Origin: an uncultured bacterium
GTDB lineage: Bacteria; Patescibacteriota; Dojkabacteria; SC72
Direction of reading: 5' to 3'
DNA length: 64,000 bases
Assembly: GCA_903840015.1 (NCBI GenBank)
Contig: CAIMEL010000024.1
Coordinates: 1,057-65,056, forward strand
The first letter of the stretch is position 1. The number at the start of each line of letters is the position of its first letter. Both the position numbers and the translations under genes were made by a program. The notes beneath the pieces are model-generated. The model saw only the letters and a list, made by a program, of their open reading frames with translations. It had not been told where the DNA came from and ran no database searches. Of the stretch, positions 19,829 to 35,283 are shown piece by piece.

Positions 19829-20006
19829 AAAATATACATTAATAAAAATGTAGGAGATCTTTAACACATATCCTACATGGCCATTTATTACGAATATGTG
19901 TTGTCCGGAACGAACCTGTACAAAAGTTCTTTTGCTTTCCGGATTGGATAATTTTTTCCAATTCATAATTATATAAATTATTATAATTATCTAAGATGAG
20001 AAAATC

Positions 20007-20738
20007 TTGCTCAGCTTAGTGATTATTGCCGTAGTTGCAGGGGCAACGATTGCTGCTACACGAGCTTTCTTCACTAGCCAAGATGTGTTAGGTACTAACA
20101 CATTATCATCCGGCACCCTTTCCTTGGATCTAAATGGTGCTGAGACAAAAATAATTGGGCTTGGAAATGTCACTGGACTTGTTCCAGGAATGTCTACTCC
20201 AGAGGGCACAATTATTGTAAATAATGTTGGTACAGAGAACTTTGCTTGGGTTGGCAAATTCCTCCTAAGTGGTGACTCTCAATTGCCGAAAATCATTTAC
20301 ATCAAAGATATGAAGATGGAATTCCTGAAACCAGATACTACAACTTGGGAACCATCAGATCATTTCATTAAAGATGGTAAAGGATACGGATCATGGCCAA
20401 CTTACTATAACAGTTTAGCAGCATCCGATCCACTTGGGGTAATATCATTAAAAACCTGGAATGAAAATTACTCTGGTATGATACCTCCTTATCCATTCTT
20501 TGAAGGAGCTTTAAAACCAGGGTACCAGTACAAGCTAACCTTCACTTTGGCAATGCATACTTCTGCAACAAACACCTATATGGGCAGAACAATGGGACTT
20601 GGTTTCCAAGCCAATGCAACACAAATAAATGCTGAGGCAGTAGCAGATATGATATCCGGACTAATAGGGGCAACTTACCCTGCAAGTTCTGTTGATATGA
20701 CTTGGTTGAACGCTCAAATCGCAAAACAAGTTCTTTAA
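20007..20738 (+). CDS. TasA/camelysin-like secreted protein with a SipW-cognate-class signal peptide (TTG start)
   Basis: N-terminus MLSLVIIAVVAGATIAATRAFFTSQDVLGTNTLSSGTLSLDL parallels Bacillus TasA (..AFNDIKSKDATFASGTLDL). Beta-rich body with no Cys. Lies immediately upstream of a SipW homolog. Confidence 0.55.
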   Translation: MLSLVIIAVVAGATIAATRAFFTSQDVLGTNTLSSGTLSLDLNGAETKIIGLGNVTGLVPGMSTPEGTIIVNNVGTENFAWVGKFLLSGDSQLPKIIYIKDMKMEFLKPDTTTWEPSDHFIKDGKGYGSWPTYYNSLAASDPLGVISLKTWNENYSGMIPPYPFFEGALKPGYQYKLTFTLAMHTSATNTYMGRTMGLGFQANATQINAEAVADMISGLIGATYPASSVDMTWLNAQIAKQVL

Positions 20739-20786
20739 TTCGTTATACATTCTCAACCCTGGTTAACCAAGTAACCAGGGTTCGAG

Positions 20787-21359
20787 GTGAATCTTATTAA
20801 AAACACTATGGCACAGAAAAAGAAAAATTTGATGAATTTACTAAAAAATTTTTTATTTTTCATTGTTATAGTCTTCTTAATAGCTTTCATAGCTATAATT
20901 TTACTGATGAAGTTCAATACAAACAGCAACCTAAATTTCTTCACAGTTCTCTCTGGTTCAATGGAACCACAAATTCCTTCTGGTAGCCTAATTCTCACAA
21001 GAGTGGAAAATGAGTACAATATAAATGATGTGATTACATTCGTACCAACTCCAGAAACTCAGGTTCCGATAACACACAGAATTATTAACATCGAAAGAAA
21101 GAATGACGAAGTAATATACTACTCAAAAGGAGATGCAAATAACGCTCCAGATAATATTCCTGTGACAAAAAATCAGATTTTGGGAAAGATCATATTTACT
21201 ATACCTTTTCTTGGAAAACTTTTCGCTTATGCAAAGACCCAAACCGGATTTATTTTGCTTGTGATTCTACCGGCTTGTGTAATAATCATTTCCGAAATTG
21301 TCTCTATGAAGAAGGAAATAACTATTTTAAAAAAGAATAATGAAAAAACTCTTTCTTAA
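20787..21359 (+). CDS. sipW: Signal peptidase I, archaeal/SipW type (S26B)
   Basis: N-terminal TM helix, catalytic-Ser box FFTVLSGSMEPQIPSGSLIL, catalytic His in ITHRIINI, and KGDANNAPD box. Architecture and size match SipW/Sec11-type enzymes. Confidence 0.75.
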   Translation: MNLIKNTMAQKKKNLMNLLKNFLFFIVIVFLIAFIAIILLMKFNTNSNLNFFTVLSGSMEPQIPSGSLILTRVENEYNINDVITFVPTPETQVPITHRIINIERKNDEVIYYSKGDANNAPDNIPVTKNQILGKIIFTIPFLGKLFAYAKTQTGFILLVILPACVIIISEIVSMKKEITILKKNNEKTLS

Positions 21360-21984
21360 AATTCTCGCTATCTATACCCTAATCTTGTTACCACAGGTAC
21401 CATTCAGTATTGCCTTTCTGTTAGATGAAGAAATTTTGGATACCAGTTTAATTACCACAGGAACGTGGGCTCAAGAATCAGTGATAATTAACGAAGTTAT
21501 GTGGATGGGATCTTCCGTATCTGATCGCGACGAATGGATAGAATTAAGAAATCTTTCGAATCAAGAGGTTGATATATCCCACTGGAAGCTGTACGGGGCA
21601 GTTGCAGTATATAATGGTCATCTCGAAATCCCAGCAAAGCAGTCAATTGCTCCTAATGGCCTTTATTTAATTGCTAACAAATACGAAACTGACAAAACTA
21701 GCAACCTTAACACACAAGTCAATCTACGATCAACAAGCATTAATCTAGATGACAACTACTTCATAAATGGCCCTCTAATACTCAAAAATCGAAATAATAT
21801 GGAAATTGATCGCACTCCAGTTCAAACAACATGGCCAGCAGGATTAAATGCGGAAACAAAACATTCAATGCAACGAGACCCTGAACTCAATTGGTACTCT
21901 TGTACCAATCTATTATGTGCGTCTGTAACATTCTGGGATATCGTCAGCCAGGACTATGGAACTCCAGGGGCTGAGAACCTCTAA
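21340..21984 (+). CDS. secreted lamin-tail-domain (LTD) protein with a SipW-cognate-like signal peptide
   Basis: Signal region ..SIAFLLDEEILDTSLITTGTWAQ (AF..D.E....TGT motif as in the TasA-like neighbour). The LTD core VIINEVMWMGSSVSDRDEWIELRNLSNQEVDISHWKL..GLYLIAN matches PF00932. Confidence 0.55.
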   Translation: MKKLFLKILAIYTLILLPQVPFSIAFLLDEEILDTSLITTGTWAQESVIINEVMWMGSSVSDRDEWIELRNLSNQEVDISHWKLYGAVAVYNGHLEIPAKQSIAPNGLYLIANKYETDKTSNLNTQVNLRSTSINLDDNYFINGPLILKNRNNMEIDRTPVQTTWPAGLNAETKHSMQRDPELNWYSCTNLLCASVTFWDIVSQDYGTPGAENL

Positions 21985-22022
21985 TCCTTGTCCCAAAGCC
22001 ATTTCTGTGATATAATAGTAGT

Positions 22023-22169
22023 ATGAAAATATTAATACTGCTTTTAGCAATAACCAATCTACTCATATCTCCTCTCTTACTTAAAGAGAATGAAATAGAA
22101 GTAGATACATCTGAAGATATCCTCTCTGAAGGTATTTCTGATCCTTCATATATAACAGAGGTCAAATAA
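22023..22169 (+). CDS. possible small secreted peptide (48 aa), not in the ORF track
   Basis: ATG..TAA reading MKILILLLAITNLLISPLLLKENEIEVDTSEDILSEGISDPSYITEVK: hydrophobic N-terminus plus acidic tail. No homology evidence. Confidence 0.2.
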   Translation: MKILILLLAITNLLISPLLLKENEIEVDTSEDILSEGISDPSYITEVK

Positions 22170-27737: not shown

Positions 27738-28429
27738 AGCTTTTTTCTTAAAAATTTAGGAACAGGATTAAAACTCCTCCTATGTATCTCACAAGCCCCA
27801 TACTCCTTCAAAGCTTCAATATGTTTCTTAGTACCATATCCAACATGTGACTCAAAACCATATTCAGGATATTTTTTAGCATAATCATACATAATCCTGT
27901 CTCTTGTAACCTTTGCCAAAACTGATGCAGCAGAAATACTGTAATGTTGTAAATCTCCTGCTTTAATCTTCACCATCTTGTATTTAGGAATAGTAAGGAT
28001 ATTCTCCCCATCCGCTATAATGTAGTCAACCTTCGAATCCAATTTTCTTTCAACAATATCCAAAGCTATACTCATAGCTTCTAAAACTGCCTTCTGTATA
28101 CCCATACGATCAATATCTTTCGCACTAACAATACCCACCCCAAAGGCTGTAGAAAGTTCTTGAATCTTTTCAAAAGATAACTCTCTCTGTTTCTCTGTCA
28201 TCTTCTTACTATCTCTAACCTCGGGAACAACCTGATTCCCATTCAATATCACAACTGCACCAGCTACAACAGGCCCTGCCAAGGGACCCCTTCCTGCTTC
28301 ATCCAGCCCTACAACATAATGGAAACCTTCACTCCATAATTTCTTCTCTAGTTCTGTATCTGGATATATCATATGTATATATGTTAGCATATATGATATG
28401 AAAAAGATTTTTCTAACCCTTCTCTGCAT
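27734..28429 (-). CDS. rnhB: Ribonuclease HII (the true start is probably the internal Met at MIYPD.., about 19 codons in)
   Basis: VVGLDEAGRGPLAGPVVAGAV and RNase HII catalytic residues; ATGA overlap with the downstream NUDIX gene. Confidence 0.85.
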   Translation of the reverse strand: MQRRVRKIFFISYMLTYIHMIYPDTELEKKLWSEGFHYVVGLDEAGRGPLAGPVVAGAVVILNGNQVVPEVRDSKKMTEKQRELSFEKIQELSTAFGVGIVSAKDIDRMGIQKAVLEAMSIALDIVERKLDSKVDYIIADGENILTIPKYKMVKIKAGDLQHYSISAASVLAKVTRDRIMYDYAKKYPEYGFESHVGYGTKKHIEALKEYGACEIHRRSFNPVPKFLRKKL

Positions 28430-28670
28430 CTTCTGTCTTTACCTTCCAACATCTACTGTTCTTGCTCAAACAGAAACCAAAGAACCAACTTCTGTTACAA
28501 TTGAGGAAAGCACAGAGACACAGCAGAATGAAACAGAAGAGAATCAACCTCAAGTTACTGAGACTAATACCGAATCCAAATATTCTTTCTCAACAATTCT
28601 TCTAGCTATACTTGCACCCTGTCTGTTAATAGTGATTACATATTTTCTTCTTCGCTTTTTTAAATTCTAA
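28398..28670 (+). CDS. small secreted, C-terminally anchored Thr/Glu-rich protein
   Basis: Signal peptide LLCIFCLYLPTSTVLAQT, low-complexity T/E/Q linker, C-terminal TM helix ILLAILAPCLLIVITYFLL. Confidence 0.4.
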   Translation: MKKIFLTLLCIFCLYLPTSTVLAQTETKEPTSVTIEESTETQQNETEENQPQVTETNTESKYSFSTILLAILAPCLLIVITYFLLRFFKF

Positions 28671-28697
28671 ATATTTAATTTTACTTTTACAAAACAT

Positions 28698-29066
28698 ATG
28701 AGAAATGAAGACCCTATGGCCTTTTTCAAAGGAATGCTCTTCGGGGCAGTCGCAGGAGCCGTTGCTGGCTTACTTCTAGCTCCCAAATCAGGGAGGGAGA
28801 CTAGAGAGGATATCAAGAAGCTTGCCGTTGATATGCAGGAAAAAGCAGTCGATATATATGAGGATGCGAAAAAAGAATTAAGAAAGAAGATTGCTGCAGT
28901 TAAGACAGCAGGAGAATTAGTTGATGAGACAAAGTACAGAGTATTGGTCAGACAGGTTGTAAATGAATACAAGAAAGATGCTAAAGTAACAGCTTCTGTT
29001 GCAGAGAAACTAGGAGAACAGCTTAAAGCTGATTGGGTACTAGTAAAAAAGGAATTGATGAAGTAG
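28698..29066 (+). CDS. YtxH-like (DUF948) general stress protein
   Basis: GMLFGAVAGAVAGLLLAPKSGRETREDIKK matches the YtxH N-terminal motif; coiled-coil remainder. Confidence 0.55.
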   Translation: MRNEDPMAFFKGMLFGAVAGAVAGLLLAPKSGRETREDIKKLAVDMQEKAVDIYEDAKKELRKKIAAVKTAGELVDETKYRVLVRQVVNEYKKDAKVTASVAEKLGEQLKADWVLVKKELMK

Positions 29067-29156
29067 TAAAGGATTAAGAGAGGTGCCAAGAAGCATAGTG
29101 GTTAGACCACATATCAAGGCACCCCCCTGTCCTTTTTCCAAGAGAGAGAGTGAAAC

Positions 29157-30125
29157 TTACTCGGTGGGCATTTCAAACTTACCGAGTTCGAGACCACTAC
29201 AGGATGTGAATTTACTCACAAGAACTCCTGCGTCCCGAATTCGGACTAAATCAGGCCATTCTGCCCATGAAAATGGACCTGAGTGGATACCAGCAATGAT
29301 GATGAAGTCTCCAGTCGGCGGGGCCGAGAGGAAGTACTGACCATCAACCATGGTAGCTGGTATATACACATCCCGATAGATTACAGAGAATTCCTCTGGG
29401 CTAAACATATACACCCTTTGGATTTCCCACCACGGGAAGAGCCAACCGTCGATTTCGCAACTCCACGTCCAGGAGCACTTGTCCACAAGTGTCCACATGA
29501 TATGAAGGTTCCCAGCATCTGGATGAGTCATGAACTCGACTGTGAAGTCGGAGCCACAAGCTTCATCGCAGGCAGGGGTGTACGGAATGGCGGGAGGTAC
29601 GTACGGTGGTTTTGGAGGTTTAGGTGTTTCTGGTTCAACACACAAAGGGTCATCGGCCAACAATGTTGGATCCTACTCACAGACCTCAGGGTCTGGTTCA
29701 ACACACAAAGGGTCATCGGCCAACAATGTTGGATCCCATTCACAAACCTCTGGATCTGGAGGTACGGTGACTAACCTAAACGATGCGTGGGAGAGATCTT
29801 GAATCTTCCCATTCTGATTGGTGACACTGCTCGTTACCGTAGCGCTTCCTGTCGGTGGATTTACATTCCCATACACGACAGTCGTGGATGCCTTGTAGCA
29901 TGTTTCAGCCACCAAGTATCCAGCGGGAGCGTTGAAGGTATACGACGTACCAGACAAACCGTCCACTTTAGTCCAATCACCTCCTGAAGGACAAGTATCT
30001 TGCCCACCTCCATTGGCAAGAACGGTTGATGTGCCGACTGCCGCAAGGGCGAACAGAAAAACCAGAAATACTGCAAGAACTTTCTTCATTTTTCCCATCC
30101 TTTTCTCTCTCTTGTTAAAGAACAC
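29157..30125 (-). pseudogene. secreted Cys-rich repeat protein interrupted by a single in-frame TAG; both pieces are in one frame, so this is a pseudogene, a stop-codon readthrough or a sequencing error
   Basis: Signal peptide MKKVLAVFLVFLFALAAVGTSTVLA. ORF 29673..30125 and ORF 29157..29663 share a frame, separated by TAG at complement(29673..29675). Tandem 21-aa repeat CEWDPTLLADDPLCVEPDPEV / CE*DPTLLADDPLCVEP. About 50% GC against about 33% around it. Confidence 0.5.
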
Positions 30126-34668: not shown

Positions 34669-35283
34669 ATGTACGAACAAGAACAAACTGTAAAAACTAC
34701 TCAGACAGAGAAAATCTCCTCCATTTTCTCTTCCATAAGTCAGTTCATTCTCTCTTTTCTTGAAACGGTTGTAGTAGCATTAGTAATCTCCGTTGTCCTC
34801 TACCTCTTCATAATGACCCCTCACGAGGTTGTGGGGAACTCAATGCATCCTACATACAAGAATGGGGAGTATTTAATGGCCAACAAAATATCATATCGAA
34901 TTGGAGAGCCACAGAGAGGTGATGTGATCATATTTAAATATTCTGAAACTCAAGACTTCATCAAACGCGTAATTGGATTACCAGGAGACACAGTAATGTT
35001 GAAAGATGGACATATATATATAAATGATAAAATCCTTGACGAATCTGGATATCTTAGTGATTCTGTATATACAAATGGTGGTAATTTCCTAAAAGAAGGA
35101 GAAAGTAAAACAGTTCCTGATGGTCAATATTTTGTTTGTGGAGATAACAGACCACATAGTTCAGATTCAAGAGAATTCGGTCCAATTAAGACAGAAGATA
35201 TCAAAGGAAAGGCCTGGATTGTGTATTTTCCTTTCTCTGAGTTCCGAATTGTACAACATGAGACATATACAAATACAGAGTAG
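34669..35283 (+). CDS. lepB: Signal peptidase I
   Basis: Box B VVGNSMHPTY, box C GDVIIFKY, box D RVIGLPGDTV, box E FVCGDNRPHSSDSR. Confidence 0.85.
   Translation: MYEQEQTVKTTQTEKISSIFSSISQFILSFLETVVVALVISVVLYLFIMTPHEVVGNSMHPTYKNGEYLMANKISYRIGEPQRGDVIIFKYSETQDFIKRVIGLPGDTVMLKDGHIYINDKILDESGYLSDSVYTNGGNFLKEGESKTVPDGQYFVCGDNRPHSSDSREFGPIKTEDIKGKAWIVYFPFSEFRIVQHETYTNTE

Follow-up and report, generated by a model that had tools for sequence, protein, structure and literature searches.

The stretch analysed here (contig CAIMEL010000024.1; hereafter, the window) is 64 kb of DNA from an uncultured bacterium, and the nearest relatives of its genes are found in Patescibacteria, the small-genome bacteria of the candidate phyla radiation (CPR). 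Three co-directional genes lie within positions 20007-21984 of its forward strand. Gene A (20007-20738, 243 aa, TTG start) encodes a secreted protein of the TasA/camelysin superfamily, predicted to be the major subunit of a fibre; gene B (20787-21359, 190 aa from GTG) encodes a signal peptidase I of the endoplasmic reticulum (ER)/archaeal type (S26B, SipW-like); and gene C (21340-21984, 214 aa) encodes a secreted protein with a lamin-tail domain (LTD), predicted to be a second substrate of the peptidase. A and C flank B, and the 20 nt that B and C share (21340-21359, ATGAAAAAACTCTTTCTTAA) suggest translational coupling; a one-base frame change in this overlap would join the two into a fused gene. 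All three open reading frames (ORFs) are intact and of full length. An initial annotation, made from the sequence letters, had listed these genes together with a fourth, 48-aa reading frame (ORF D), and had pointed to the N-terminus of A, the 20-nt overlap, and the SGSMEP and THR boxes of B, all of which are present as it gave them.

The peptidase assignment of the initial annotation is borne out by family models and by alignment with solved relatives. On TIGR02228 (ER/archaeal-type signal peptidase I, S26B), B scores 110 bits against a cutoff of 51.85, and its orthologue in a related locus, L002, scores 106 bits. The nearest solved relatives are human SEC11A and SEC11C, with SEC11A (7p2p_A) found at E=2.2e-9, and the motifs SGSMEP (Ser58), ITHRI (His97) and KGDANNAPD (Asp116/122) of B align with SGSMEP, IVHRV and KGDNNAVDD of SEC11A. 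As in SEC11A and SipW, Ser58, His97 and Asp116/122 would have catalytic roles in B. The likeness to SEC11 and to archaeal signal peptidase I (MEROPS S26B, TIGR02228) thus covers the Ser-His-Asp motifs and the overall sequence. Unlike SEC11, B is a bacterial enzyme that stands alone, its gene lies next to those of specific substrates, and it has a hydrophobic (membrane) segment at each end, the extra one at the C-terminus being like that of SipW. On NF046067, the Bacillus SipW equivalog model, B remains below the cutoff (114.5 bits against 190), and judged by this model it is SipW-like in type, not a SipW orthologue. The window also encodes a housekeeping LepB-type signal peptidase I (34669-35283, forward strand; TIGR02227 170.2 bits against a cutoff of 47), so that B is a dedicated enzyme in addition to it, comparable to SipW in Bacillus.

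There is more than one candidate start for B. Besides the GTG that gives 190 aa, there are ATG codons at 20808 and 20832, and the public gene calls begin at an ATG at 20907, which gives a protein of 150 aa that does not include the N-terminal membrane anchor. The TIGR02228 model aligns from residue 19 of the 190-aa form, which makes the ATG at 20808 the likelier start, and the public 150-aa call is probably truncated. An exact-sequence look-up of the 190-aa form gave no match because the public calls use the 150-aa form.

The TasA-like nature of A emerges from its family. A word-indexed search returned four relatives, of which two pass PF12389 (Peptidase_M73) and one is named 'TasA family protein'. 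Scores on PF12389 were 28.2 bits for P0003 and 38.6 bits for P0004 against a threshold of 22.5, covering profile positions 4-79 only, while P0002 had no match to this family; on TIGR04088, the model of the SipW-cognate signal (cutoff 19 bits), P0003 reached 18.2 and P0004 14.9 bits. An exhaustive profile search with the A family found 1267 cluster representatives at E<=0.001, 50 of them at E<=1e-30, and 60 of 79 aligned family members match PF12389 at E<=0.001. Searched against the PDB, the family profile matches TasA of Bacillus subtilis (8aur_A, E=8.9e-8; 5of1_A, E=2.4e-7) across profile positions 32-224, nearly the whole domain. The model of A has a TasA-like jelly-roll fold, with 14% identity to TasA in the structural alignment, and the solved structures nearest to A are those of the TasA monomer and fibre. 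A Foldseek search of the model against the PDB gave mostly generic beta-sandwich matches at TM-scores of about 0.25-0.3, which is weak evidence alone. Membership of A in the TasA/camelysin superfamily, as claimed in the initial annotation, is thus supported by the family profile and the fold, and not by a match of the single sequence.

The N-terminus is the part of A that matters most for the reading given below. Members of the family share a hydrophobic core, G-T-x-A, [WYF]-F-[TS]-[DS], and then N-T-F-x-A-G-T-L. A hidden Markov model (HMM) was made from 75 further TasA-like N-termini, leaving out A and the three proteins closest to it, and A reaches 56.2 bits on this model (E=4.6e-17). The signal peptide would comprise residues 1-20 (20007-20066, forward strand), with a predicted cleavage after ..ATRA(20) and before FF, placed by reference to the TasA site between A27 and A28-F29 (PMC9674648, PMC10269814); residues 1-24 are the only strongly hydrophobic stretch of the protein. 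The segment after this site (20067-20120, forward strand; FFTSQDVLGTNTLSSGTL) corresponds by alignment to TasA residues 28-45 and is the predicted donor strand. This N-terminal segment is conserved in the family, and in the monomer model, residues 19-28 have a pLDDT of less than 50.

The start of A is unusual, since it is a TTG that does not give the usual Met-Lys/Arg beginning; homologues start MKRLLFSL, MIKILKSL or MKKILMSL. An ATG AGA AAA at 19996-20004 (within 19996-20009, forward strand) lies one base out of frame with the gene and spans an A4 run at 20001-20004. The start MRKILLSLV... would result if this run were one A longer or if the Lys tRNA slipped by -1 on A-AAA. The out-of-frame triplets are either an ancestral start that was lost or a site of -1 slippage. 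The same arrangement is present in an independent assembly, L001, so that it is no one-off assembly error. Assemblies from three samples contain A in identical form.

The identification of C as an LTD protein is confirmed both by its family match (PF00932, 44.7 bits against a gathering score of 34.3) and by its model, whose lamin-tail fold has lamin Ig-like tails as all of its top 15 PDB matches. The best genome match of C among the species-representative genomes, which do not include the genome of the source organism itself (GTDB set), is Candidatus Dojkabacteria HGW-Dojkabacteria-1, at 54% identity. With other bacterial PF00932 surface proteins, C has in common the Ig-like fold and the signature NEvMW...EWIELrN...TPG..N. 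Unlike these proteins, the subfamily of C is preceded by a SipW-type signal and is encoded behind the peptidase or fused to it. In the model, a helix (residues 2-19) is followed by a low-confidence segment (25-44, pLDDT <50) that lies outside the fold, and then by the beta-sandwich. The predicted signal peptide (residues 1-25; 21340-21414, forward strand) ends at ..FSIA(25), before FL, and the post-cleavage segment (21415-21468, forward strand; FLLDEEILDTSLITTGTW) equals FFTSQDVLGTNTLSSGTL of A in length and in hydrophobic register.

The initial annotation held that C carries the same signal motif as A. A regular expression for the post-cleavage motif, run over the six-frame translation of the window, matches A and C only. 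Within the window alone, the motif of C is indistinguishable from chance, and it becomes credible only via the homologues: these score 14-25 bits on the TasA-derived N-terminal HMM, and nine of 17 match it at E<=5e-4 in the same register. In the reverse test, the N-terminal part of an HMM of the LTD family finds A at E=6e-4.

The arrangement of the three genes is not confined to this window. The order A-B-C, together with the B/C overlap, is found in a 65%-identical relative with a different gene neighbourhood (L002, L003), and order and overlap recur, again in different neighbourhoods, in Woesebacteria-like and other contigs (L004-L009). Species-representative genomes were scanned with an alignment of the LTD and then with HMMs built for this analysis, which gave 80 LTD loci, almost all in CPR lineages. 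A SipW-type gene lies directly upstream on the same strand in 44 of these, an in-frame SipW-LTD fusion is present in eight, and no SipW-type gene was found in the remaining 28, which mostly encode large multidomain LTD proteins. Among the 52 loci having a SipW-type gene, a TasA-like ORF is located upstream in 46, and none was detected within the flank in six. The LTD protein had been described in the initial annotation as an unusual second substrate; it is instead a regular one, since TasA-like/SipW/LTD is the standard arrangement in CPR genomes (52/80 LTD loci), and the peptidase and the LTD protein are often fused.

The fusions are uniform in their layout. In all eight, the C-terminal membrane segment of the peptidase is followed by a charged linker, a new hydrophobic segment, the cleavage motif (for example, ..TYA before the cut and LFSS..ITG..I..GE after it), and the LTD. 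With this topology, cleavage site and catalytic domain lie on the same side, outside the membrane. A search of protein databases found at least 40 further fusion clusters, which are named just 'signal peptidase I'. In many lineages, the third gene carries a complete TasA-like domain ahead of the LTD.

Several further observations concern the related loci. A TasA-like domain and a C-terminal LTD are found in one chain in many CPR proteins (P0014, P0233, P0241, P0242, P0248, P0267, P0285 and P0286, and also at L016, L019, L020, L024, L026, L028, L031, L036, L040 and L069), and P0014 has a second copy of the motif (FYDEERVSNVFATGEWG) between the two domains. In Woesebacteria-like and other Microgenomates loci (L004, L005 1353-3174; L006, L007 1-2507; L008 1181-3143), a sortase gene and a gene for a large fn3 or SdrD_B/SpaA-like surface protein lie directly upstream of the cassette; neither a sortase motif nor a C-terminal LPXTG was found in the 64 kb of the window. 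The cassette also occurs in metagenome-assembled genomes labelled 'uncultured Gammaproteobacteria' or 'Bdellovibrionales' (L012, L015, L024, L034, L050, L065, L068, L069, L075 and L085), labels that are probably wrong. A 496-aa LTD protein, P0251, bears the JGI name 'predicted ribosomally synthesized peptide with SipW-like signal peptide', so an automated pipeline had already recognised a SipW-like signal on an LTD protein, under a misleading name.

The N-terminal motif of the LTD protein goes with its partner genes. In 29 loci, the LTD protein and its own TasA-like neighbour resemble each other more closely in their post-cleavage segments than do pairs drawn from different loci: cognate pairs average 2.02 and permuted pairs 1.59 in BLOSUM62 score per position (z 5.2), and none of 100,000 permutations was as high. 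The partner-specific signal is strongest at P1'-P6', beside the cleavage site (z 5.9), and cognate pairs are also more alike at the distal positions P7'-P16' (z 3.3). The A/C pair of the window has 5 of 18 residues in common, in the same hydrophobic register, and ranks sixth among the 29.

The clearest case is a natural swap between two Dojkabacteria-like loci, L002 (8001-9975) and L010 (2700-4549). They have common flanking genes and an almost identical LTD domain, whereas the TasA-like genes show no relationship past the signal, the peptidases have 37% identity, and the LTD N-terminal motifs differ. Each LTD motif matches that of its own TasA-like partner; the L010 pair consists of LFSSKVSMTGVVLGTAT, preceded by GYA, and LFSSTAEITGMVIATGE, preceded by TYA. 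Peptidase and LTD are split in one of these loci and fused in the other, the L010 fusion protein being 399 aa long. The recombination boundary seems to fall between the motif and the LTD domain. Partner matches like that of L010 are also present in L038 and L049. In L017 (2097-4501), the TasA-like and LTD proteins have near-identical, atypical post-cleavage segments (AVFSDQAVLGDNTVTAG and AVFSDQAVLSDNEVSAG), which suggests gene conversion or tight co-evolution.

The closest known parallel is the tapA-sipW-tasA system of B. subtilis, in which SipW cleaves both TasA and TapA (PMC9674648, PMC10151520). Residues 28-38 of TasA act as a donor strand, completing the fold of the subunit that follows (PMC9674648); the N-terminus of TapA is similar to this strand and is believed to provide the first one (PMC9674648, PMC10151520). 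TasA has an aromatic residue at P2', which is poorly handled by LepB (PMC10269814). Like this system, the cassette of the window has a dedicated ER-type signal peptidase encoded between its own two substrates, one of which is a TasA-fold jelly-roll, while the other, a small accessory protein, has an N-terminus like that of the major subunit. In both systems, the genes for peptidase and accessory protein overlap (sipW and tapA in B. subtilis; PMC9674648, PMC10151520). The two systems differ in gene order, which is tasA-like, sipW and accessory here but tapA, sipW and tasA in Bacillus, and in the accessory protein, which has a lamin-tail domain instead of the TapA fold. No TapA family match was obtained for C in the Pfam and NCBIfam scans, and C is likened to TapA by function only. 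Further differences are the score of B below the Bacillus SipW equivalog cutoff (114.5 against 190), the remoteness of A from TasA (14% identity), and the fusion of peptidase and accessory protein in relatives of this cassette.

A second parallel is found in archaea, in the AbpA/AbpB bundling pili of Pyrobaculum calidifontis. Here too, a TasA-related donor-strand filament goes with a neighbouring accessory protein, which has been proposed to be the first-strand donor and an adhesin (PMC9245690). Unlike the present cassette, the archaeal locus has no dedicated peptidase gene (PMC9245690). AbpA is a weak structural match to A (7ueg_A, rank 36), and AbpX is found at E=0.11 only.

Taken together, profile, structural and comparative evidence backs the claim of the initial annotation that a SipW-type peptidase is flanked by two cognate secreted substrates, and we consider it fairly probable that A, B and C form a secretion and assembly module, the CPR counterpart of Bacillus tapA-sipW-tasA, in which B matures A and C, A forms fibres, and C is an accessory or tip protein. 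The membrane-anchored Ser/His/Asp peptidase B would cut A after Ala20 (..TRA before FF..) and C after Ala25 (..SIA before FL..), both sites being followed by aromatic residues. Mature A would then be a TasA-fold jelly-roll whose new N-terminus, FFTSQDVLGTNTLSSGTL, inserts as a donor strand into the next subunit, giving an extracellular fibre. Mature C would consist only of a matching N-terminal strand and the lamin-tail Ig-like domain, and its strand would be donated to an A subunit, as that of TapA is to TasA. Since C has the strand but no acceptor domain, it would be placed at one end of the fibre, as its nucleator or cap, with the LTD exposed for binding. Support is good for what the three proteins are, for the link between enzyme and substrate, and for N-termini that match the partner; cleavage by B and its positions, the polymerisation of A, and the attachment of C and its place on the fibre we infer by analogy with Bacillus.

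It is tempting to go one step further and to speculate that CPR bacteria make TasA-type donor-strand fibres that are started or tipped by an LTD protein, often fused to its peptidase and processed by it in the same molecule. Such a module would serve these episymbiotic bacteria as an attachment organelle, widespread and exchangeable, in which fibre subunit, peptidase and N-terminal strand of the tip are swapped as one unit of specificity, as the comparison of L002 with L010 might indicate. This wider proposal is offered tentatively, as a possibility on the unlikely side.

Some results weigh against the fibre module. A alone matches no Pfam family, PF12389 included, and on TIGR04088 it scores 11.2 bits, below the cutoff of 19; repairing its N-terminus to MRKILLSLV... 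left the score unchanged. The initial annotation had named the absence of a significant match to TasA/camelysin models as a ground for giving up its assignment, and at the level of the single sequence the assignment fails on that ground. The lack of a charged signal-peptide start may make the export of A inefficient. On the TasA-derived N-terminal HMM, C is in register but reaches only 2.6-3.0 bits, which is not significant, and it has no match to TIGR04088. Furthermore, the signal in the distal segment is weak within subgroups (p 0.11 and 0.03), and a common peptidase, not a common groove, could be what the partner-specific match is adapted to.

The last point leads to the main rival, a less probable one, namely that A and C have in common only their peptidase. 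C would then be an independent SipW-processed LTD protein (an adhesin, or a binder of DNA or of host surfaces) that is encoded beside B just because it needs B, and its post-cleavage segment would serve recognition by the peptidase. The motif indeed belongs to a general class of SipW-cognate signals (TIGR04088), the partner-specific signal is strongest right beside the cleavage site (P1'-P6', z 5.9), six of the 52 SipW-LTD loci have no TasA-like gene within the flank, and the fusions prove a link between enzyme and substrate, not one to a fibre. This reading does not explain why P7'-P16', far from the active site of the peptidase, are nevertheless conserved and matched between partners, as in the pairs of L038 and L049, nor why 46 of the 52 loci have kept a TasA-like gene directly upstream. 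The whole TasA-like domain that precedes the LTD in the third gene of many lineages also speaks for the fibre, and TapA provides a precedent (PMC9674648, PMC10151520).

The remaining rivals concern the single proteins or the state of the cassette. It is rather improbable that the cassette is decaying, a weakly functional or non-functional remnant in which A has lost its start and the motif of C, the lowest-scoring of its family, has degenerated. The ATG-AGA-AAA that lies one base out of frame would fit such a history, but all three ORFs are intact and of full length, the same allele occurs in assemblies from three samples, and the TTG start keeps the complete hydrophobic core and the cleavage site, with A still reaching 56 bits on the N-terminal HMM. 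Chance resemblance, with C bearing an ordinary Sec signal cut by the LepB-type enzyme that is on hand, draws on the score of C on the TasA-derived HMM (3.0 bits, E of about 2) and would make its likeness to the signal of A a coincidence. This is very unlikely in view of the homologues, whose motif is significant and in the same register, the conserved adjacency to and fusion with the peptidase, and the regular expression that matches A and C only in the whole window. That A is a camelysin-type metalloprotease and not a structural protein is suggested by the name of the Pfam family, Peptidase_M73; no HExxH motif is present in A, which makes a protease role unlikely, and with the TasA monomer and fibre structures as its closest solved relatives, the probability of this reading is close to nil.

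The module of A, B and C does not extend to ORF D (22023-22169, forward strand, 48 aa), which the initial annotation had listed as a possible secreted peptide just downstream. Apart from the identical genome L001, none of the related loci has a homologue of ORF D, which also gave no family match in the Pfam and NCBIfam scans and is not called by public gene callers; because it is not conserved across related loci, it was rejected as a member. A promoter-like site (TTGTCC, 17 nt, TG-TATAAT) lies directly 5' of it, at 21988-22016. Scans for promoters and terminators round the cassette found sites no more frequent than in shuffled sequence, so the boundaries of the operon are not defined by these scans. 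The neighbours of the cassette are a UvrD-like helicase gene upstream, and a PAP2 gene and an amidase (GatA-like) gene downstream. The window has a G+C content of about 35% and ten tRNA genes, and an Rfam scan of it returned tRNAs only. At 28001-30000, the local G+C content is 0.43, higher than the roughly 0.35 of the rest; both strands have long, overlapping ORFs at 28667-30125, with no Rfam match, and part of the 28001-30000 stretch is a YtxH-like gene in the public gene calls.

CPR bacteria, or Patescibacteria, live attached to other microbes, and, type IV pili excepted, little has been learned about their surface structures. The individual components of the cassette are sometimes named by automated annotation, and one sentence in the literature notes TasA homologues in this group, listing Patescibacteria among the phyla with PF12389 (PMC9245690). 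Full-text searches of an incomplete literature library gave no description of the cassette or of the fusions, and no paper connecting lamin-tail domains to SipW or TasA. The cassette is widespread in CPR bacteria and has apparently not been described as a unit before.

In the TasA-like/SipW/LTD module, CPR bacteria have a specific candidate for a surface filament of a second kind. The natural fusions of peptidase and substrate support the pairing of enzyme and substrate and suggest self-processing. If the proposed module is real, the donor-strand principle of TasA and TapA, known from Bacillus and some archaea, would be found in a third major branch of life as well, and a role would be given to a large group of bacterial LTD proteins that are now annotated just as 'lamin tail domain-containing protein' or, where fused, as 'signal peptidase I'.

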